Shown: in pieces, positions 3,708-42,967 of the stretch | Layout of the letters: each line of letters begins with the position of its first letter | How positions within the stretch are numbered: position 1 is the first letter of the stretch | From: Escherichia phage vB_ecoS_OzMSK | DNA length: 45,053 bases | Reading direction: 5' to 3' (one strand) | Sequence record: PQ659294.1 | Translations under genes and position numbers: made by a program | Notes under the pieces: model-generated | Seen by the model: only the letters and a program-made list of their open reading frames with translations | What the model was told of the DNA's origin: nothing | The model's database searches: none

Positions 3708-3785
3708 GCTCCGCTAGCTCAATTGGATAGCAGCAACGACCTTCTAAGTCGTAGGTTACTGGTTCGAGGCCAGTGCGGAGCGCCA
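3708..3785 (+). tRNA. tRNA-Arg, anticodon UCU, with encoded CCA
   Basis: Hand-folded cloverleaf: acceptor GCTCCGC/GCGGAGC (7 bp), U8, A14, GG in D-loop, anticodon stem ACGAC/GTCGT with loop CTTCTAA, 5-nt variable loop, T-stem ACTGG/CCAGT with loop TTCGAGG, discriminator G, CCA. Confidence 0.7.
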
Positions 3786-28377: not shown

Positions 28378-28812
28378 ATGCACGTAATTACCGGTCAGAT
28401 TCGCCGCGCTCCGTTCACCAAAGAAGGTCAAAACGCCAATGGTAACTGGAAGATGTTTGCGGTTGATTTGAGTGAGAGATACAAGGATAAAGATGGTCAA
28501 ACTCAGTACACAAACTACCGCGCAGTACTTTTCGCCAAAGAGTCGATGCTGGATTGGTATAACGAAGCATTTCAGGAAGGTAAAGTTGTCAGCCTAAGCG
28601 CCGAGAGTTTGTCGGTTGATGTTCGCGATAAAGATGGCAAGACTTACGTTACAGTTAATATGAATAATCCTCGACTGGAATTTAGTCAGCGAGGTGATTC
28701 AGCGACACAACAGCAGATGCAAAACCAACAGCGTCAGCAACAGAAGCAGCAGCAACAACAGCGACAACAGCCACAACAGCAAAGTCAATTTGACGACGAC
28801 ATTCCTTTTTGA
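28378..28812 (+). CDS. ssb: single-stranded DNA-binding protein
   Basis: OB-fold-like N-terminal region, Gln-rich linker and acidic C-terminal tip DDDIPF typical of bacterial-type SSBs. Confidence 0.8.
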   Translation: MHVITGQIRRAPFTKEGQNANGNWKMFAVDLSERYKDKDGQTQYTNYRAVLFAKESMLDWYNEAFQEGKVVSLSAESLSVDVRDKDGKTYVTVNMNNPRLEFSQRGDSATQQQMQNQQRQQQKQQQQQRQQPQQQSQFDDDIPF

Positions 28813-32961: not shown

Positions 32962-34956
32962 ATGTTGCCTATCGAGAAGCTGGTTGCAAACTTCGATAAA
33001 GAAAGAATCAAGCAGATTCAGAAAGATTACCAGTTTGGCGAGATAACCCCTTACGAATTCCAGTGCGTTACATTTGACGTAATTGGGAAGGCTATTGGCA
33101 AGTACGAAGCGCCATTTATCGCAGACCTTTCCGTATCGGCTGGTAAGACAATCATTCTTGCTATGATTGGAAAGCGAATGGAGCAGCTTGGTCTTCCTTA
33201 TATGGTTCTCTCTCGCCAGTCAGAGATAATCAGCCAGAACTCAGAAGAGCTTCGTAATTTCGGGATCCGTAACAGCGTATATTGCGCTGGCCTTAACGTT
33301 AAATCAGTTTACTACCCAACCATAGTTGCTAGCGAAGGAACTGCGGCTAATGGCTTATTTAAGGGGCTTGGTGACTATGTTCCTGCCGTTATAGCTATAG
33401 ATGAATGTCACATGCTTGATACCATAGATATTGTGGAAGCCGAAGAGAATGAAGAAACATTTGAGCAAATGAGCACAAAGAAGGGCGAGATGGTTTTTAA
33501 GGATGGCGTTAATACTGGATTGCTTGGTACTGGTCGTGCGCAGTACACGCTAATAATCACTGAGATGAAGCGTCGCTGCCGTGAAAAATACGGGCGGGAG
33601 CTTCGTATATTCGGCCTTACTGGTAGCCCTTATCGAAACAATGACCATATCGTCGTCAGCAATCCAAACATCCGTGGGTTCTGGCGAAAAGCTGTGATTC
33701 ATGTTCCAACAAATTACCTTGTTGATTTGGGATTCGTGGTTCCTACTGTTTATGGCGAGGTTGGCGATTTAGGTTATGACCTTAGCGAGTTTGTTCCAGA
33801 CGGTAGTGATGGCGTGAAAGACTTTAGCAGAAAAGAAATGGATGCAATGGTCGCAAAGATTCACGACAACCAAACCATGACACAAAAGATAATGCAGTTT
33901 GTCGTCAAAATACTGGAGACTCGCAACGCCGCATTGGTCACCTGCGCCGGAAAACTCCATTGCAGCGAAGCGGCTTCCGCACTGCCTGACGGATACCCTT
34001 ACGCTATTATCACCGATTCTACCGGAGAGAGGAAGCGCAGAGAGATTCTTGCAGATTGCCAGACTGGAAAGTACAAGATTATCTTTCAGATTGGATGTCT
34101 AACCACGGGTGTAAACCAACCGCTGTGGGATACTAGCGTCATACTACGCAAGATTGGCAGTCTAACCTTAATGATTCAGCTTCTTGGTCGTGGCATGCGA
34201 AAACTAAAAAAGGCGCACATAGATGCTGGGTTCAAGAAGGAGGACCACTTGGTATTAGACTTTGCCGGAGCGCTTGATGACATGGCAGAGCTTTACTTTG
34301 ACCCGATAATTGAAGAGATTCAGGCTGAAAAGTTTAAAACATCAAGGAGGAGTGGTGATGAGGTTCGCCAGTGTCCGCAGTGTGGATATGATAACTCGCC
34401 ATTTGCTCGACGCTGTAGCAATAAGATTAATGGCGTTAGATGCGATCACTTTTTCCAGTTCACAACATGTGAGGATATTACCGACCAACAAACAAAGGCG
34501 GTAATCAAGAAAGGTTGTGGAACTAAAAATGACATAGCAGCAAAAGTTTGTCGTGAATGCGGAGAAATGCTTAAAGACCCAAACGCTAACCTGACTGGAA
34601 AGATGTATCGTCGCGGAGACTATTTGCGTGTTTATGACTTCCAGGTTGGATTAAGCAAAAATAAAACTGGTATAGTAGTTAAGTATAATATCATGGCGCA
34701 CAACGGAGAGAGGTTTAACGCGTGGGAGTTCTTTAACCCAGAATCAGACCATAGGGTTTGTAGTGTGCTTTGGAAAAACTTTTGCCTTGCTCACATTGAA
34801 AATCGCGCTGAAGCAGCACGGATTGGTAAAATTCGTAACGCAAAAATGATTATGATGAATGTAGATAAATTCCGTGCTCCAGTGCAAGTTACACACAGGA
34901 AGAACGGAAAGGGGAAGGATGTGATCGCATACAAGAATTTTGGAGAATTGAAATGA
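32962..34956 (+). CDS. SF2 helicase (DEAD/DEAH-like) with C-terminal Cys-rich zinc-ribbon region
   Basis: Walker A SVSAGKT, Walker B-like IDECHML, paired CxxC motifs (CPQCG, CRECG). Confidence 0.75.
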   Translation: MLPIEKLVANFDKERIKQIQKDYQFGEITPYEFQCVTFDVIGKAIGKYEAPFIADLSVSAGKTIILAMIGKRMEQLGLPYMVLSRQSEIISQNSEELRNFGIRNSVYCAGLNVKSVYYPTIVASEGTAANGLFKGLGDYVPAVIAIDECHMLDTIDIVEAEENEETFEQMSTKKGEMVFKDGVNTGLLGTGRAQYTLIITEMKRRCREKYGRELRIFGLTGSPYRNNDHIVVSNPNIRGFWRKAVIHVPTNYLVDLGFVVPTVYGEVGDLGYDLSEFVPDGSDGVKDFSRKEMDAMVAKIHDNQTMTQKIMQFVVKILETRNAALVTCAGKLHCSEAASALPDGYPYAIITDSTGERKRREILADCQTGKYKIIFQIGCLTTGVNQPLWDTSVILRKIGSLTLMIQLLGRGMRKLKKAHIDAGFKKEDHLVLDFAGALDDMAELYFDPIIEEIQAEKFKTSRRSGDEVRQCPQCGYDNSPFARRCSNKINGVRCDHFFQFTTCEDITDQQTKAVIKKGCGTKNDIAAKVCRECGEMLKDPNANLTGKMYRRGDYLRVYDFQVGLSKNKTGIVVKYNIMAHNGERFNAWEFFNPESDHRVCSVLWKNFCLAHIENRAEAARIGKIRNAKMIMMNVDKFRAPVQVTHRKNGKGKDVIAYKNFGELK

Positions 34957-35372
34957 ATATTACAGACAAAGTTGATTACATTGAGTTTTACCCGGGCCCG
35001 GTTAAGTCATGTCCTAAAGAGGATGACGAACAAATCTTTTGTTCTGATTGGGTTAAGTATAACTACCCGGATATGGTATTTTTCCACTGCGTGAATGAGG
35101 GTAAGAAAACCATTGGTCAAGCAAGAAAGGACCAGGCTAAAGGATTGCTTAAAGGGGTTTCGGACTGCTTATTCCTTATACCTGAATCACTGCGAGGCAA
35201 ATACCCATTTGGCGCTATAGAGCTAAAGAGAGCAGGTAAAACGCAAGCTAGCCCAGTTAGCGATGAGCAGAAGTCATTCCTAAAAAGCGTAAGAGAATCA
35301 GGTGGCTTCTCCGCAGTAGCCTATGGCAGAGGTGGCTTTCTTGCAGCATTCGCAGAGATGATTCGAAAATAG
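34953..35372 (+). CDS. VRR-NUC domain nuclease (PD-(D/E)XK fold)
   Basis: 139 aa; motif DCLFLIPE...GAIELKRAGK matches the D..E.K signature; ATGA overlap with helicase. Confidence 0.55.
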   Translation: MNITDKVDYIEFYPGPVKSCPKEDDEQIFCSDWVKYNYPDMVFFHCVNEGKKTIGQARKDQAKGLLKGVSDCLFLIPESLRGKYPFGAIELKRAGKTQASPVSDEQKSFLKSVRESGGFSAVAYGRGGFLAAFAEMIRK

Positions 35373-36847: not shown

Positions 36848-36928
36848 AGTACGCCGCCCTAGTAGCATTAGTACCACTGTTTAGCTTTACTATCTTATAT
36901 TTTATCGTGATGAACTAAGGACTTAAAA

Positions 36929-38059
36929 ATGGCAGTAGCAAAGATTACCAACGAGCAGCTTATCGAAGAGTTGAAAAATGGCATGACTAACAAGGCGATT
37001 GCAGAGAAGTATGGCATGAACATTCGCAACGTCGAGCTTCGTCGCAGCAAGTTGGCTAAGAGTGGAGTTGGGCATGGTAATGAGGGTATCAATAAGCTAG
37101 TACCGGATGGATATTTAGTCAAGGGCACTTCAACCATGATTGATGCGGAAGGGAATGAGAAGCTGCGCTGGGTTAAGACGAGCGTTGATAATGAGCGCCT
37201 TGAGGTTTTAATGGAGCAAGCTCGAGAAGCGTTTTGCTCTGAGTTGCCAAAGGCAGATTCGGTCAACCACTCAGGTAATGAGGTCAATTCTGAATTAATG
37301 ACTCTTTACCCGATTTTCGATATCCATATCGGCATGATGGCTCATCGACATGAGTCTGGTGAAAATTATGACACGAACACAGCAGAGAAATTGATGGGGT
37401 CATATTTTGACCATGCAATTTCTGTATCACCAGCCTCGGAGAAAGCCGTGATTTTAGTTGGCGGCGACTTCCTTCACTCTGATGGACTGGAGGCTGTAAC
37501 CCCAGCAAGCGGACACTGCCTTGATCAAGATAGTCGATATGCCAAGTTAGTTTATGTAGCAATTCGATCAATTCGCGGTGCGGTAGAGAAGATGCTTAAG
37601 AAACACAAGGAGGTCGAGATTCAAATCATAGAGGGCAATCATGATCAAAGTGGTATGATTTGGCTTCGCGCTGCAATGGCTGCATTTTATGAAAGAGAGA
37701 GTCGAGTGTTTGTTGATACCAGTCCGGCAATCATGCACAAGACGCGATTTGGCTCAACATTACTTGGTTACACGCACGGTCACACGATGAAGAAAGCCGA
37801 GGGTCGACTAGCAGCAATGGCGACCGACTACCGCAAAGACTTTGGTGAATGTGAGTTTGTTTACTGCCACTCCGGCCATTTCCATCATGCAACTGTTACA
37901 GAGTGCACTCTTGGGATTGATGAAGTCCACCCTGCACTTGCTAGCAAGGATGCATATGCGGCACGGGGAGGGTGGAGATCATATCGACAAGCGGCTGCAA
38001 TTATTTACCACAAGAATTTTGGCGAGGTTGGTCGACACATTTATCGCCCAGGTATGTAA
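36929..38059 (+). CDS. metallophosphoesterase (calcineurin/Mre11-SbcD-like motifs) with N-terminal HTH-like domain
   Basis: Motifs FDIHIG (D-x-H), GGDFLHSDG (GD), EGNHDQ (GNHD), YTHGHT (GH); N-terminal MTNKAIAEKYGMNIRNVELRR resembles a sigma70-region-4/LuxR-type HTH. Confidence 0.55.
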   Translation: MAVAKITNEQLIEELKNGMTNKAIAEKYGMNIRNVELRRSKLAKSGVGHGNEGINKLVPDGYLVKGTSTMIDAEGNEKLRWVKTSVDNERLEVLMEQAREAFCSELPKADSVNHSGNEVNSELMTLYPIFDIHIGMMAHRHESGENYDTNTAEKLMGSYFDHAISVSPASEKAVILVGGDFLHSDGLEAVTPASGHCLDQDSRYAKLVYVAIRSIRGAVEKMLKKHKEVEIQIIEGNHDQSGMIWLRAAMAAFYERESRVFVDTSPAIMHKTRFGSTLLGYTHGHTMKKAEGRLAAMATDYRKDFGECEFVYCHSGHFHHATVTECTLGIDEVHPALASKDAYAARGGWRSYRQAAAIIYHKNFGEVGRHIYRPGM

Positions 38060-38133
38060 ATAGTACTTTTTGTTAATAAAGCCTCAAAGGATTGAGGCAA
38101 AATGAATAAACGATAAAGAGATGAGGAATTGTA

Positions 38134-38607
38134 ATGATTTACGTATTTGATATCGATGGAACTATAGCTAATAATGAGCATAGAAGTAACCTCTTGCCAT
38201 TCAGCGACCTTCACTTGACTTCAAGTTGGAAGGATTACAATAAAGCCTGTTCTGGAGACTCACCAATAATTCCAATGATAAACATGATGAATACGTTATC
38301 CGACTCATCGCCAGTTTACATCATGACCTCAAGAAGTGATGAAGTTGAATGGAGGACTCTTGAGTGGCTTAAGGATAATGAGGTTGAGTATGATTCGATA
38401 TACATGAGAAGTCGATATGACAACCGAAAAGATTACAAAATAAAAGAGGAATGGCTTAATGAAATCAGTGGTGGCGATAAAAGCAATGTGATTATTTTTG
38501 AAGATAACCCACAAGTAATTAAGCACCTAAGAAGTTGCGGATACACCGTTATGGCTGTATGTGAATATGAAGACCTACCTAAAGACTGCGAATCTCACGG
38601 AGAATGA
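38134..38607 (+). CDS. HAD-family phosphatase (putative nucleotidase)
   Basis: N-terminal HAD motif I VFDIDGTIA; 157 aa; adjacent to the dNMP kinase gene. Confidence 0.5.
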   Translation: MIYVFDIDGTIANNEHRSNLLPFSDLHLTSSWKDYNKACSGDSPIIPMINMMNTLSDSSPVYIMTSRSDEVEWRTLEWLKDNEVEYDSIYMRSRYDNRKDYKIKEEWLNEISGGDKSNVIIFEDNPQVIKHLRSCGYTVMAVCEYEDLPKDCESHGE

Positions 38608-39161
38608 AAATGACTAAATTATTTATCCTTAATGGCCCAGCTGGAGTTGGCAAGGACACTATAGCGGATATGATGGTTGAGACTGGTGTCGCAAAAGAAA
38701 AGGTATCATTCAAGTCACCAATATTTAGAGTTGCAAAAGGAATGCTATCAAGCGATGAATTTGATGAATTCATCAAGAATTACGACAATAGAGACTATAA
38801 GGAATCACCTCATAGATTTCTTGTCGGTATGACAGTTCGTGAATTTATGATTTGGATTAGCGAGTCTGTAATGAAGCCAGCCTTTGGTGATGATGTTTTC
38901 GGTAAAAGGCTAGCGCAGTCACTTGGTGATGGCTGCTACATTTGCGCTGACGGTGGATTTGCTAGCGAGATTAAGCCACTGATCGACGCTGGTGTTGAGG
39001 TCACGTTAATCAGATTGCATAGGGCAGGGTACACATTTGATGGCGATAGTCGCTCATACATTCACGGGGTGTGCGCAAGAGAAATTGATGTTCGTGTTGT
39101 TGATTGTGATATTAATGGAACATCAGCATTGGTAAGGCACGTAATAAATAGCACAAATTGA
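38604..39161 (+). CDS. deoxynucleoside monophosphate kinase (P-loop kinase, putative)
   Basis: N-terminal P-loop ILNGPAGVGKDT; size and motif typical of phage dNMP kinases; C-terminus INSTN is encoded by a class-A motif copy. Confidence 0.55.
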   Translation: MKMTKLFILNGPAGVGKDTIADMMVETGVAKEKVSFKSPIFRVAKGMLSSDEFDEFIKNYDNRDYKESPHRFLVGMTVREFMIWISESVMKPAFGDDVFGKRLAQSLGDGCYICADGGFASEIKPLIDAGVEVTLIRLHRAGYTFDGDSRSYIHGVCAREIDVRVVDCDINGTSALVRHVINSTN

Positions 39162-39232: not shown

Positions 39233-39409
39233 ATGACTAAAATGATTTATTGCACCAAAAACAACTCCAAGACTCTGCCATTTACAGTTAACCAGCCGTA
39301 CAACGCAGAGTACCAGGGCGATGGATATTACAAGATTTATGGAGACGATATGACGCACATCTTAGCGCCGATTGATGGTTCGTTGGTTGAATTTATTATC
39401 GCTGACTAG
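39233..39409 (+). CDS. hypothetical small protein (58 aa)
   Basis: ATG with GAGG RBS after a class-A cassette, followed by a strong terminator. Confidence 0.4.
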   Translation: MTKMIYCTKNNSKTLPFTVNQPYNAEYQGDGYYKIYGDDMTHILAPIDGSLVEFIIAD

Positions 39410-39435: not shown

Positions 39436-39463
39436 GGGGAGCCTTTTGGCTCCCTTTTTTTAT
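39436..39463 (+). terminator. rho-independent terminator (GGGGAGCCTTTTGGCTCCC + T7)
   Basis: GC hairpin plus T-run. Confidence 0.7.
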
Positions 39464-40638: not shown

Positions 40639-40848
40639 TTAAAGTGGGATTAACTGCATTGATTCCACTCTAATTTCAATCCCGCGCACAAGTCCTTCCA
40701 GGCTTGTGGTGATGAATGACTCCGATACGTATCCACCATCAGAGATGGTAGCGATAATGTCACCATCACCCTGCTCTTTAATATCCACGGTCAGGAGGTT
40801 GGCTTTTGCTTTTGCAAGTACTGCCATCAGTTTTTCTACTGTGCTCAT
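40639..40848 (-). CDS. hypothetical protein (69 aa)
   Basis: ATG 40848 with AGGAG RBS (track ORF extends to 40896). Confidence 0.4.
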   Translation of the reverse strand: MSTVEKLMAVLAKAKANLLTVDIKEQGDGDIIATISDGGYVSESFITTSLEGLVRGIEIRVESMQLIPL

Positions 40849-40931
40849 TTTATATACTCCTGTCTTAATATTATTTTCGGGTTGGCTTTTAAGCACCCGC
40901 GCTTCGATGGATTAATAATAGCAAAAGCCCT

Positions 40932-40955
40932 CTAGGGGCTTTTAACAAAAAGGGC
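40932..40955 (-). terminator. terminator-like hairpin (AAAAGCCCCTAGAGGGCTTTT)
   Basis: GC hairpin with flanking T-run on the minus strand. Confidence 0.5.
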
Positions 40956-40958
40956 TAT

Positions 40959-41294
40959 TTAATAGAATAATTCGTCGTCAGTCATTTTTCCTATGTTCAT
41001 CATCTCTTTTATGTACTTGCTCTCATACCCGCTAAGTGACTCAAAGTTGAAGCTAAATGGCCTATTTAAACTCCCCTTGCTAACAAACTCCCCACACTTA
41101 CCATCAATGTATCCAGCAGTTAACATCTTTGCGCAAAACTCCTTTGAAGCAGCGCTGCAAAACTCTCTATGCGATAACCCTGCCGCCTTGCTAAATCTCT
41201 TAGAATCCTTATGTTGGTAGATGAATCGCGCCAAATGCTGGCGCGTGAAATAGGAATACGACTCGCAGAACTTAAATATATCGAGCAGGAACAT
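40959..41294 (-). CDS. hypothetical protein (111 aa)
   Basis: ORF with several Cys and basic residues. Confidence 0.45.
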   Translation of the reverse strand: MFLLDIFKFCESYSYFTRQHLARFIYQHKDSKRFSKAAGLSHREFCSAASKEFCAKMLTAGYIDGKCGEFVSKGSLNRPFSFNFESLSGYESKYIKEMMNIGKMTDDELFY

Positions 41295-41296
41295 AA

Positions 41297-41380
41297 TTAA
41301 CTCCAGGATATGCTTAAAACAACTACGATACCAAAAATCAATACAAAGAAATCAAGCAATATAAGTAGAATTTCAATCAT
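41297..41380 (-). CDS. possible 27-aa hydrophobic peptide
   Basis: MIEILLILLDFFVLIFGIVVVLSISWS; stop overlaps the next start (TAATTATG); GGGGTGA upstream. Confidence 0.25.
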   Translation of the reverse strand: MIEILLILLDFFVLIFGIVVVLSISWS

Positions 41381-41383
41381 CTA

Positions 41384-42967
41384 TCACCCCAGCAGTCGTG
41401 GATTAATGTAAACTTTATCACCAATCAGGCACGTATAGTTTTTCTCATCAAGCATTGGTAGTAAGTGGTCTTTAATCTTCGTCATTACTCCCGCTTGACC
41501 CTCGAACGGCTTAACCTTGCGAGCAGCTTCATATAGAGACCGGATGCCTACTACGCCTTTCCCATTTTTTACTTGCTTAATCAGAATATCAATCAGCTTA
41601 TTCATCTCTGCATTGTCGCCAGCGTGACCCGCAGCGTTGGCAGATGACAAATAAGTCTTGCTAAGTTCCTGGAACATAATTACAGCTTCCTGCATTGTAT
41701 CAAGCTCAATTTCTCTCGACTTCTGAGGGCTACCGCCATTTGGGTTGAACCAGTTACGCACAGTGTGAAGAACCGCCGCAATCCTGATTGCCTGCTTATC
41801 GAACTTACCCAACGCGCCTCGCAACATTGTGTGTGAATACTTCCCGCCGTCAGCAAGGTGCGGTTCCATTTCCTGACGAGCGCGGTTGAGATATTTCATT
41901 GCTGAATTACTAACTGTCAACTTAACTTCTTGCTCATTCATTATCTCGTGAACTAAACGGAAGTAATCAGCCTTCAACCCGGCATCAATTGGCTCATAAG
42001 TCGATTCGCCATTTTCATCAACGAATACACGCTCGCCCAGGAGTGACTTTTCACGTACAAGCAGGAAACGCTCAGATACACCGATACCACGCGCGCCAGC
42101 GTTCATGATAGCGTTGATTGTCTCATCCTGCGCAATTACAGAGATGCAACCCATAGCTACGAAGCTCATGTTGTTTTCAGCGTTAGCACGAGCGATAGAT
42201 ACGTTGCCAGCATCCCATGCCTTCAGTACAAGCTCGCTGTTCGTTTTCTTTGATCCGTCACCATAGGTCATGCCAAGTAGTGAGTTTACACTCGTTGCCT
42301 CATCCGAGATTACTGCAAAGTTACCCTGACGATTGTTTATTCGCGCAAGACCTTCCGGTGTGGTATCTGAAACCGGGAAAACGATATCGCATAGTTTCTC
42401 GAGCTTTTCCTCAAGATCTTCTTTCTCCTCAAAAAGCGATTTCATCTCAGATGGTGACTTTTCCTGCTTCATCTCTTTGGATAACGCAGATAGTTTAGCC
42501 ATAATCTTTTTGCGCTCGCGCTTTCGAACTTCATTCAGTCGCTGAGTCTCGGCAATCATTGGCGCAATAGAAAGTGAGTTAATTGCTGATTTACCAGTCG
42601 ATGGTGGCTGACTCGTTACGACGTAAAGCGAGGTTGGCTGCTGAGTTCCGTGATACTCTACGGTAAAACGTCCAAGCATGGCAGCGGAAATACACCCCAG
42701 GAAGTGCATGTATGCGGACGACTCCGGGAATTGCACGCTCCGAGCAATGTTAGCTGACAGCTTACCAACAACATCAATATCATTTCCGAGTGATATTACA
42801 GGGTACTTATCATTTGCCGCATCAATCTCGACAGGAGCCTTCCAGAATGATTGAGACTGGCGATAGCCATTTGCATTAATAGCGACGCGCAAAGGTGGAA
42901 GGTTGTCTGCGGCAGCAATTGCCATAACCTGTTCAACAGATAGTTTATCTTCGTTGAAATCAAACAT
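41384..42967 (-). CDS. P-loop NTPase of unknown function (527 aa; possible replication-associated ATPase)
   Basis: Walker A-like PPSTGKS and Walker B-like AVISDE; GGAGAG RBS; N- and C-termini are paralogous to the remnant at 1093..1512. Confidence 0.55.
   Translation of the reverse strand: MFDFNEDKLSVEQVMAIAAADNLPPLRVAINANGYRQSQSFWKAPVEIDAANDKYPVISLGNDIDVVGKLSANIARSVQFPESSAYMHFLGCISAAMLGRFTVEYHGTQQPTSLYVVTSQPPSTGKSAINSLSIAPMIAETQRLNEVRKRERKKIMAKLSALSKEMKQEKSPSEMKSLFEEKEDLEEKLEKLCDIVFPVSDTTPEGLARINNRQGNFAVISDEATSVNSLLGMTYGDGSKKTNSELVLKAWDAGNVSIARANAENNMSFVAMGCISVIAQDETINAIMNAGARGIGVSERFLLVREKSLLGERVFVDENGESTYEPIDAGLKADYFRLVHEIMNEQEVKLTVSNSAMKYLNRARQEMEPHLADGGKYSHTMLRGALGKFDKQAIRIAAVLHTVRNWFNPNGGSPQKSREIELDTMQEAVIMFQELSKTYLSSANAAGHAGDNAEMNKLIDILIKQVKNGKGVVGIRSLYEAARKVKPFEGQAGVMTKIKDHLLPMLDEKNYTCLIGDKVYINPRLLG

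Follow-up and report, generated by a model that had tools for sequence, protein, structure and literature searches.

An HTH-metallophosphoesterase gene adjoining PseT-type HAD phosphatase and dNMP kinase-like genes in Escherichia phage Msk: a candidate deoxynucleotide salvage cassette

Escherichia phage Msk is a T1/Rtp-like phage, and the window analyzed here, 45,053 nt in length, is its whole genome. Three open reading frames (ORF1, ORF2, and ORF3), all on the plus strand, are the subject of this study ( Table 1 ). Comparison with the ORF list of the window places them exactly at the coordinates first given in an earlier note made from the sequence alone, and the motifs quoted in that note (D-x-H, GD, GNHD, GH, and DIDGT) are all present. 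The three have hundreds to thousands of homologues, and the ORFs are therefore real, far beyond what chance would produce. ORF1 lies downstream of a helicase gene and a VRR-NUC gene on the same strand, and the start of ORF3 overlaps the stop of ORF2 by 4 bp. The rightward block that runs from the helicase to the kinase ends at an intrinsic-terminator-like hairpin, after which the lysis genes begin. In addition to the VRR-NUC nuclease, Msk carries an exonuclease VIII/Erf/SSB module. The annotated relative used for comparison, PCEc3, is 90% identical to Msk over the query region.

Table 1. Coding and non-coding features of the Msk locus, numbered from the first nucleotide of the window.
Feature	Coordinates	Strand	Basis or remark
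Shine-Dalgarno AAGGA, ORF1 (MPE gene)	36917..36921	+	7 nt 5′ of ATG; read from sequence
ORF1, HTH-metallophosphoesterase, 376 aa	36929..38059	+	phrog_704 member ('DNA repair exonuclease')
ORF1 N-terminal three-helix HTH, aa 1-45	36929..37063	+	AF2 secondary structure; weak profile matches; Pfam matches of relatives
ORF1 beta-hairpin + helix subdomain, aa 62-103	37112..37237	+	AF2 model; conservation
ORF1 metallophosphoesterase core, aa 120-376	37286..38056	+	invariant motif columns; Mre11 alignment; fold matches
Perfect 7-bp inverted repeat (GCCTCAAAGGATTGAGGC), ORF1-ORF2 spacer	38081..38098	.	sequence; terminator scan
Shine-Dalgarno GAGGA, ORF2	38123..38127	+	read from sequence
ORF2, stand-alone PseT-type HAD phosphatase (predicted), 157 aa	38134..38607	+	PF25109; phrog_415
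ORF3, gp1-type dNMP kinase-like P-loop protein, 185 aa	38604..39161	+	phrog_139
58-aa ORF, final gene of transcription unit	39233..39409	+	ORF list; small CDS counterpart annotated in PCEc3
Intrinsic-terminator-like hairpin, 8 bp, 6 GC, then T run	39436..39455	+	terminator scan

ORF1 encodes an HTH joined to a metallophosphoesterase (MPE), a fusion that the earlier note regarded as unusual. In fact, this is the standard architecture of an already annotated family that comprises 4,648 clusters at 50% identity and is found in 2,017 of 50,697 phage records. GenBank entries name its members 'DNA repair exonuclease', 'phosphoesterase', or 'similar to PolD small subunit by HHpred', and the homologue from phage TLS has been published as a DP1-like 'proof-reading exonuclease' (PMC11447400). 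The sequence observation by itself adds little, given that hundreds of GenBank entries already annotate these genes, with the same domains and in the same order. Roughly 4% of the phage genomes sequenced so far carry a member of the family, and the literature searched contained no experimental work on it, nor a measured activity for any member.

All five MPE motifs are present in ORF1: I (D131xH133), II (G179D180xxH183), III (G236NHD239), IV (H283, in the context H283-G-H285), and V (G316HxH319). Conservation was assessed in an alignment of 118 diverse relatives with 30–57% identity, in which D131, H133, G179, D180, N237, H238, H283, G316, and H319 are invariant (118/118) and H317 is conserved in at least 90%; the metal ligands of the binuclear site are all invariant. 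The full length of ORF1 matches phrog_704 (E=4e-151). A Pfam search with the single protein returned no match, while 32 of the 118 relatives match Metallophos (PF00149) and 25 match PF12850 (E≤0.01). A single-sequence search of the PDB found nothing and profile searches of the PDB gave marginal matches; in a profile alignment, motifs I and II of ORF1 fall on the 'DWHLG' and 'GDLLHS' segments of Thermotoga maritima Mre11. The AlphaFold (AF2) model built from the 118-sequence alignment has a pLDDT of 92.9. An earlier model, based on 27 close relatives (64–97% identity), reached a pLDDT of only 62.5, with the C-terminal half below 50, and was discarded; the improvement is due to the replacement of the close relatives by the broader alignment. 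The model adopts a four-layer alpha/beta sandwich to which, among solved structures, the PolD DP1 exonuclease, Mre11, and SbcD come closest, with fold scores for the small-molecule MPEs GpdQ, Rv0805, MJ0936, LpxH, and YfcE so close behind that fold similarity, as judged from the model, does not distinguish nucleases from small-molecule phosphodiesterases.

The model, together with the Pfam matches of the relatives, bears out the initial description of ORF1 as an HTH followed by a calcineurin/Mre11-type MPE. Both the motifs and the fold place ORF1 in the calcineurin-like metallophosphoesterase superfamily, and it is best read as a putative phosphodiesterase with a binuclear metal site that belongs to the superfamily's nuclease branch. 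The role in DNA-end processing, or as a nuclease, that was originally suggested for ORF1 would be the best fit to the modeled fold. Motif II speaks against a lambda-PP-type protein Ser/Thr phosphatase, since it takes the form GDxxDRG in such enzymes and GDxxH in ORF1, and this candidate was set aside.

The N-terminal HTH consists of helices at residues 8–16, 21–28, and 32–44 of the model, within a region (residues 1–60) that is basic, with a pI of 9.5. Profile matches for this segment of ORF1 are weak (SsrB, E=0.06; GerE, E=0.04; FixJ, E=0.01; phrog_3855, E=0.006). Among the 118 relatives, matches were obtained to HTH_1 (27), HTH_8 (24), Sigma70_r4_2 (13; best E=1.5e-9), and GerE (6; E=2.4e-8), and HTH_23 was also matched. 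The N-terminus of ORF1 is therefore an HTH of LuxR/sigma-r4-like character, a description that leaves its subtype unfixed. The beta-hairpin subdomain that follows is conserved along with the MPE core, with G75 and W81 nearly invariant, and alignments of ORF1 to relatives with a divergent HTH, or with none, begin at about residue 58–66. The basic HTH and the beta-hairpin subdomain may serve to keep ORF1 on DNA, or the HTH may be regulatory, in line with the regulator-enzyme fusion that the earlier note offered as an alternative.

Mre11/SbcD proteins, including T4 gp47, share with ORF1 the calcineurin-like fold, the five motifs, and the 'GDxxH' form of motif II. In contrast, identity is only about 15%, and the N-terminal HTH and beta-hairpin subdomain are features of ORF1. 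The C-terminal capping domain of the Mre11/SbcD type is absent from the ORF1 model, in which the last core strands occupy residues 365–372 of 376, and no Rad50/SbcC ATPase gene is found in annotated PCEc3 or beside the MPE gene in any locus examined.

The label attached to the TLS homologue (gp66) would make ORF1 a DP1-like proofreading 3′-5′ exonuclease that aids the host replicase on phage DNA. DP1, the archaeal 3′-5′ proofreading exonuclease of PolD (5ihe, 6knb), differs from ORF1 in its N-terminal region, and the two resemble each other in the generic MPE core alone, with 13% identity. DP1 functions only within PolD, together with DP2, and neither DP2 nor a polymerase gene is annotated in PCEc3; for T1 and TLS, too, no evident gene for a DNA polymerase is reported (PMC11447400). 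Given that a polymerase partner is missing, the 'proofreading' label was rejected, and we consider such a role extremely unlikely.

ORF2 was proposed in the earlier note to be a HAD phosphatase, and this call is confirmed by a match to the Pfam family HAD_PNKP (PF25109) that scores 61.1 bits (cut-off 27.6). The nucleophile motif DIDGT occupies residues 6–10. ORF2 also matches phrog_415 (E=3.6e-51) and the phosphatase domain of Pnkp1 (4xrp), and in an alignment with the C-terminal domain of T4-like PseT, a homologous HAD domain, it retains D6, D8, T10, K99/K104, and D124, which cover the catalytic DxDGT motif and the K and D positions further on. PseT of T4 is a protein of about 300 aa that also has a kinase domain. 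ORF2, on the other hand, is without one: comparison with phrog_505 (T4 PseT), a model of 295 positions, shows that ORF2 covers just positions 163–290 and that the N-terminal P-loop polynucleotide kinase domain is absent. The common annotation 'polynucleotide kinase' is consequently a misnomer for ORF2, which by its sequence is a stand-alone PseT-type HAD phosphatase that may act on 3′-phosphate substrates.

The neighboring ORF3 has the P-loop GPAGVGKDT at residues 11–19. It matches phrog_139 (E=1.6e-41) over model positions 80–239, the same region that is matched by T4 gp1 (E=1.8e-65, positions 83–261), and it matches neither phrog_505 nor phrog_2071, the families of the PseT kinases. Compared with T4 gp1 (1dek), which has 241 aa, ORF3 is a shorter member of the same PHROG. 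ORF3 itself has no match to Pfam DNMK (PF21448), a family that is matched by 2 of 40 ORF3 relatives (8e-5). In an hhalign comparison, ORF3 aligned to T4 gp1 with a probability of 89.9% over the N-terminal 73 columns, and to a T4-like PseT, the control, with 92.5% over 40 columns; the P-loop dominates both alignments, with the 'GKDT' P-loop and the segment after it aligning between ORF3 and gp1. Since hhalign could not separate gp1 from PseT, the assignment was settled by the PHROG held in common with T4 gp1, in agreement with the original dNMP kinase call. The depositor of a Kagunavirus homologue of ORF3 likewise recorded an HHpred match to T4 dNMP kinase (99.5%), and a prophage neighbor of the MPE gene recovered with the ORF3-family profile matches DNMK with 49 bits (cut-off 27.1). 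ORF3 is accordingly placed in the gp1-type dNMP kinase family, with predicted kinase activity.

These assignments bear on the possibility that the trio is a nucleic-acid end-healing cassette directed against host nucleases such as anticodon nucleases. In such a cassette the MPE would open 2′,3′-cyclic phosphates, as does the MPE domain of bacterial Pnkp, the HAD protein would remove 3′-phosphates, the kinase would phosphorylate 5′-OH ends, and a ligase would close the break. As a homologue of the T4 PseT and Pnkp1 phosphatase domains, ORF2 is consistent with this scheme, as is the autographivirus Era103, where the trio (gp26-28) directly precedes a DNA ligase gene, and the order phosphatase then kinase bears a superficial resemblance to a split PNKP. 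However, the kinase belongs with T4 gp1 and not with the PseT kinases. Neither a DNA ligase nor an RNA ligase of the kind that seals in bacterial Pnkp/Hen1 or T4-type RNA repair is annotated in the Msk-type genome; an adjacent ligase is confined to Era103. In addition, the same type of HAD gene adjoins nrdB in Krischvirus. With a gp1-type kinase and no ligase, the split-PNKP or RNA-repair reading is largely rejected, and such an end-healing function is highly improbable.

In 458 phage records, which represent at least four unrelated lineages, the MPE, HAD, and kinase genes are direct neighbors: the Rtp-like and Webervirus Drexlerviridae, Kagunavirus fTaEco01, Autographiviridae Era103, and Yersinia phage vB_YenM_22. 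In Kagunavirus fTaEco01 the trio forms an accessory island on the opposite strand within the tail module, away from the replication genes. The linkage is facultative: of the phage records that contain the MPE gene, about three quarters are without adjacent HAD and kinase genes, and in T1 some 12 kb separate the HAD-kinase pair from the MPE gene (MN153797, positions 40808–41941). Another podovirus contig carries the MPE and HAD genes followed by a dGTP/dATP diphosphohydrolase-like gene. In 45 loci from bacterial genomes (prophages), tblastn recovered no homologues of ORF2 or ORF3. A subsequent profile search of these loci recovered 14 divergent dNMP kinases, so that, as a raw tally, a gp1-type dNMP kinase lies within 3.5 kb of the MPE gene in 14 of 45, while a PseT-type HAD was found in none by either method. 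Further recurrent neighbors of the prophage MPE genes are a YfbR-like 5′-deoxynucleotidase, a nucleoside-2-deoxyribosyltransferase-like protein, and Endo VII. The proposal that the Msk genes form a nucleotide-metabolism cluster is therefore supported, both by the adjacency of the trio across phages and by the dNMP kinases and 5′-deoxynucleotidases that adjoin prophage MPEs.

It is conceivable that ORF1 is a repair and recombination exonuclease that resembles Mre11 but acts without Rad50. It would trim or open the ends of phage DNA, as well as branched intermediates, in support of recombination-dependent replication and the processing of concatemers, and the adjacent phosphatase would clean 3′-phosphate ends. 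This would agree with the database name 'DNA repair exonuclease', with the proximity of the fold and of motif II to Mre11, SbcD, and DP1, with the position of ORF1 after the helicase and VRR-NUC genes, and with the endonuclease VII, 5′-3′ exonuclease, DNA ligase, and Holliday-junction resolvase genes that are among its neighbors elsewhere. Yet a Rad50/SbcC-like partner and the capping domain are both missing, Msk already has exonuclease VIII, Erf, and SSB, the commonest recurrent neighbors are nucleotide-pool enzymes and not recombinases, and the Kagunavirus cassette lies among tail genes. On balance, a role of this kind seems rather unlikely.

Our tentative preference is for a different role, one that we regard as a serious possibility falling somewhat short of probable, in which ORF1 is an HTH-tethered DNA phosphodiesterase that feeds deoxynucleotide salvage together with ORF2 and ORF3. 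ORF1 would be expressed as part of the rightward block, along with helicase and VRR-NUC, and, with the putatively translationally coupled ORF2 and ORF3, would constitute a mobile three-gene cassette. The MPE would cut or resect DNA, most plausibly the host chromosome; the HAD phosphatase would then strip 3′-phosphates from the fragments or from 3′-dNMPs; and the kinase would convert 5′-dNMPs to dNDPs, from which host nucleoside diphosphate kinase could make dNTPs for phage replication. A parallel exists in T4, where gp46/47 take part in the host-DNA breakdown that feeds the gp1 dNMP kinase, much like the pairing of an MPE with a dNMP kinase in Msk. As a T1-type phenotype, degradation of the host chromosome is reported in Roberts & Drexler and in Christensen et al., 1981. 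T1 and TLS both break down host chromosomal DNA and recycle its nucleotides, through enzymes that the 2024 TLS paper lists as unassigned (PMC11447400). A precedent for the destruction of host DNA by a phage MPE exists in the case of mycobacteriophage A10ZJ24 Gp48, an early protein with all five motifs and phosphodiesterase activity that damages host genomic DNA (PMC12287305). Gp48 belongs to another phage lineage with another host, its motif I lies at about residue 10 and leaves no room for an N-terminal HTH such as that of ORF1, and linkage to HAD or kinase genes has not been reported for it (PMC12287305). Counting against a salvage role are the near-equal fold scores of nucleases and small-molecule phosphodiesterases, the facultative linkage of the three genes, the lack of a PseT-type HAD in the prophage loci, and the exonuclease VIII/Erf/SSB module and VRR-NUC nuclease of Msk, which could do the DNA work.

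A more specific form of the salvage proposal, which must be called unlikely on present evidence, would identify ORF1 as the nuclease of T1-type host-chromosome degradation and the trio, through its 3′-phosphatase and dNMP kinase, as a horizontally mobile 'DNA-to-dNDP' cassette acquired in several phage families. If true, a gene would be found for a classical trait of T1, the breakdown of the host chromosome with reuse of its nucleotides, which also governs the frequency of T1 transduction. The fusion of an Mre11-like core to an HTH would then represent a Rad50-independent design for a DNA nuclease, and the trio a portable deoxynucleotide-supply cassette of relevance to the arms race with dNTP-depleting defenses; the cassette might buffer phages against such host systems.

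One such defense system, PUA-Calcineurin-CE-HAD, pairs, as the Msk locus does, a HAD phosphatase with a phosphoesterase of the calcineurin-like type, and both of its enzymes act in deoxynucleotide metabolism (bioRxiv 10.64898/2026.01.15.699771). It is a host system that depletes dNTPs and has a PUA sensor (bioRxiv 10.64898/2026.01.15.699771), whereas the Msk trio consists of phage genes with an HTH in place of PUA, has a dNMP kinase alongside, and shows no PADLOC similarity: searches of PADLOC-DB v2 gave no matches for ORF1 or ORF2, and weak P-loop matches for ORF3 with E above 0.06. The existence of this system raises the question of whether ORF1 could instead be a small-molecule phosphodiesterase or phosphatase that acts on dNTPs or dNDPs, cyclic nucleotides, or other nucleotide signals, working with the HAD protein to remodel pools or destroy immune second messengers while the HTH plays a regulatory or docking role. 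The near-equal fold scores of the small-molecule MPEs and the nucleotide enzymes encoded nearby would be in keeping with this, and for an MPE and HAD pair that acts on dNTPs the precedent is experimental (bioRxiv 10.64898/2026.01.15.699771). Nevertheless, an enzyme of soluble nucleotides would hardly be expected to conserve a basic HTH, motif II is of the Mre11 type, similarity to the PADLOC defense models is lacking, and a phage that degraded dNTPs while encoding a dNMP kinase alongside would run a futile cycle. A small-molecule substrate for ORF1 is consequently improbable.

Separately, the inverted repeat in the spacer between ORF1 and ORF2 was scored in the terminator scan as a terminator-like site on the minus strand.

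The window is the entire genome of Escherichia phage Msk in rotated form: it matches MW057918.1 at 100% identity over the query, and window position 36929 corresponds to position 28647 of that record. Msk is a T1/Rtp-like siphovirus, and the related records are T1-like phages of E. coli, Klebsiella, and Salmonella. An earlier note, made from the sequence alone, had read one interval as a helix-turn-helix (HTH)-metallophosphoesterase (MPE) fusion, a HAD phosphatase, and a dNMP kinase, and three plus-strand ORFs match its coordinates exactly. Good ribosome-binding sites precede ORF1 and ORF2, and ORF2 and ORF3 overlap by 4 bp. The trio lies in a plus-strand block with the order helicase, VRR-NUC, several small ORFs, the trio, and a 58-aa ORF. 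A hairpin ends the helicase-to-kinase block, and the lysis genes (holin, endolysin, spanin) come directly after it. Among metabolism genes, the Msk paper names only a 'polynucleotide kinase/phosphatase' (PMC8421802).

Features of the Msk gene block and other sites in the window
Feature	Position	Strand	Description
ORF1 (MPE)	36929-38059	+	376 aa
ORF2 (HAD)	38134-38607	+	157 aa
ORF3 (kinase)	38604-39161	+	185 aa
Hairpin	39436-39455	+	strong, intrinsic-terminator-like; GGGGAGCC-TTTT-GGCTCCCT, then T run (terminator scan)
Helicase	32962-35372 (helicase and VRR-NUC genes together)	+	664 aa
Inverted repeat	38081-38098		perfect, 7 bp (GCCTCAAAGGATTGAGGC), within the 74-bp MPE-HAD spacer
tRNA-Arg(TCT)	3708-3785		one in Msk

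The helicase contains zinc-ribbon motifs, its C-terminus is weakly ParB_C-like, and its gene overlaps by 4 bp that of the 139-aa VRR-NUC nuclease, which is another candidate DNA-degrading enzyme in Msk. A plus-strand T tract is absent at the inverted repeat. In the annotated E. coli phage relative PCEc3 (~90% identical in the compared region), an extra 102-nt annotated 'tRNA-Ile' directly follows the tRNA-Arg (L021:2937-3038); this sequence has no counterpart in Msk.

By itself, ORF1 matched no Pfam model and no PDB sequence; its full-length match is to phrog_704, 'DNA repair exonuclease' (E=4e-151). The family is very large, with 817 matches at 90% clustering and 4,648 representatives at 50% clustering (E<=1e-3), the latter nearly all 370-420 aa long and aligned from near the N-terminus. 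Aligning 118 representatives of 30-57% identity showed no variation at D131, H133, G179, D180, N237, H238, H283, G316, or H319 and almost none at H183 and H317; these residues form the full metal-ligand set of the calcineurin-like phosphoesterases. Metallophos is matched by 32/118 of these relatives and Metallophos_2 by 25/118, and many match HTH_1, HTH_8, Sigma70_r4_2 (down to 1.5e-9), or GerE (2.4e-8). The HTH of Msk ORF1 itself gave weak matches to SsrB, GerE, FixJ, and phrog_3855; residues 1-60 are basic (pI 9.5).

AlphaFold2 modeling gave a pLDDT of 62.5 with a shallow alignment and of 92.9 (pTM 0.78) with a deep one. In the deep model, residues 8-44 form a three-helix HTH, which a linker of low confidence joins to a beta-hairpin and helix at 62-103, and the MPE sandwich takes up 120-376. 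Viral structural neighbors are family members and phage proteins labeled 'DNA polymerase II small subunit'. Sequence, profile, and structure prediction thus agree with both domain calls of the earlier note: what it described is real, and its reading of the domains is right. That note had also called the fusion unusual, but a homolog is present in 2,017/50,697 phage records (tblastn), and the same assignment has already been made by other annotators. The depositors of Kagunavirus fTaEco01 describe a 'metallophosphoesterase, similar to PolD small subunit, HHpred 99.56', and gp66 of phage TLS (371 aa, encoded just before the pinholin gene) is labeled a 'proof-reading exonuclease, HHpred 6KNB' (PMC11447400). 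The novelty of the architecture and of the cluster is low, since each is widespread and has been annotated before.

ORF2 is a PseT-type HAD phosphatase (PF25109, 61 bits; phrog_415) in which the DIDGT nucleophile motif is present and the catalytic residues farther downstream are conserved. It contains no kinase domain, and the frequent label 'polynucleotide kinase' is therefore a misnomer; phrog_415 proteins so annotated are phosphatase-only HADs of about 157 aa. Its closest relative outside the T1-like phages is a 158-aa protein of the RB49-like Krischvirus MIZ3 (46% identity), whose gene (L010:1501-1977) overlaps the end of nrdB, a nucleotide-metabolism context. ORF2 is also similar to the Pnkp1 phosphatase domain. 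ORF3 matches phrog_139, 'dNMP kinase' (E=1.6e-41), over the same model region as the characterized enzyme T4 gp1, while a T4-like PseT is assigned to phrog_505 and phrog_2071. Direct hhalign comparisons, dominated by the P-loop, gave ORF3 similar probabilities with T4 gp1 (89.9% over 73 columns) and with PseT (92.5% over 40 columns). A depositor's HHpred note for the Kagunavirus homolog names T4 dNMP kinase (99.5%), and the ORF3-family profile recovers a prophage protein that matches Pfam DNMK above threshold.

A query of the three ORFs joined end to end located the genes together in 458 phage records, including Rtp-like and Webervirus Drexlerviridae. Yersinia phage vB_YenM_22 also carries the trio, as does the SP6-like podovirus Era103 (gp26-28; 41%, 36%, and 45% identity), where endonuclease and ligase genes flank it. 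Two Guernseyvirinae phages have a small opposite-strand island within the tail module in which a superinfection-immunity (Imm) gene is followed by the MPE gene. The HAD and kinase genes come next in fTaEco01 (L009:3772-6167); in Jerseyvirus dunkel (L006:4759-7626), genes for hypothetical proteins and a DNA-binding protein take their place. In T1 the HAD and kinase genes are adjacent at 4.9-6.5 kb, with a homing endonuclease gene between them, and the MPE gene is at 40.8 kb. A metagenomic podovirus contig has the order Endo VII, MPE, HAD, dGTP/dATP diphosphohydrolase-like gene, and other family members adjoin ribonucleotide reductase, or ligase and a Holliday-junction resolvase.

A bacterial-genome scan returned 45 MPE loci, several of which are probably prophages, to judge from their integrase, terminase, and endolysin neighbors. 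Homologs of ORF2 or ORF3 were found by tblastn in 0/45. When neighbors were clustered, the most frequent was a divergent phrog_139 dNMP kinase, at most 3.5 kb away in 14/45 loci and on the MPE strand in 13 of these; it immediately adjoins the MPE gene in two (L026 and L050). YfbR-like 5'-deoxynucleotidases (phrog_318), a DUF7768/nucleoside-2-deoxyribosyltransferase-like protein, and Endo VII also recur. A Rhizobium esperanzae prophage (L056:5653-10241) encodes, in this order, the MPE, an unknown 256-aa protein, Endonuclease VII, a YfbR-like 5'-deoxynucleotidase, and a DNMK-type dNMP kinase. Taken together, the phage and bacterial neighborhoods indicate, on raw neighbor counts, an association with deoxynucleotide enzymes that is recurrent and evolutionarily independent but facultative.

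For the MPE, several rival functions are less likely than the salvage role favored below. In the profile comparison with Thermotoga maritima Mre11, 'DaHlG' aligns to 'DWHLG' and 'GDFLH' to 'GDLLH', and, like the phrog_704 label, this would fit a recombination/repair exonuclease, which the MPE may be. Much less likely are DP1-like proofreading, the function that the PolD-type annotations imply, and end healing by the cassette. The annotated genes of PCEc3 include neither a Rad50 nor a polymerase partner. By analogy with Calcineurin-CE plus HAD pairs, the MPE may also be a small-molecule nucleotide phosphodiesterase, a role to be weighed against the conserved basic HTH. Several features together suggest that the MPE is a self-tethered DNA phosphodiesterase and that its products would enter dNMP-to-dNDP salvage: the fold and motif II are of the nuclease type, the HTH is basic and conserved, neither Rad50 nor a polymerase accompanies the enzyme, and a 3'-phosphatase and a dNMP kinase are encoded beside it. 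An analogous route in T4 comprises gp46/47, PseT, and gp1. T1 and TLS are known to break down the host chromosome and recycle its nucleotides by means of genes still unassigned (PMC11447400); experimental precedent comes from a mycobacteriophage whose MPE destroys host DNA (PMC12287305).

Homing/HNH endonuclease genes are inserted at cassette junctions in T1 and in the ACG-M12, ECH1, and SCS31 records, and such elements seem to insert preferentially at the gene borders of the cassette. In ACG-M12-type phages the insertion lies inside the stretch matching the MPE-to-kinase cluster; of two T1 endonuclease genes (L005:6207-6689 and L011:5465-5959), one follows the MPE gene and the other separates HAD from kinase. 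The MPE encoded on a 3.8-kb contig of a 'Bacillota bacterium' MAG (L022, JAEZXR010000019.1) shares 96% identity with that of Msk, and the contig is almost certainly a mis-binned coliphage fragment. The E. coli T1-like region is also matched by 'Campylobacter phage' A110b, A131, A139, A138, and D1 (MG065688, MG065665, MG065681, MG065684, and MG065646) and by 'Pseudomonas phage PsgS01F' (PP134917). Nucleotide identity is 88% for A110b and 90% for PsgS01F, and the remaining Campylobacter records match at the protein level only. PsgS01F and PCEc3 have equal length (44,679 bp) and equal match statistics, and the Campylobacter and Pseudomonas host labels look like contamination or mislabeling.
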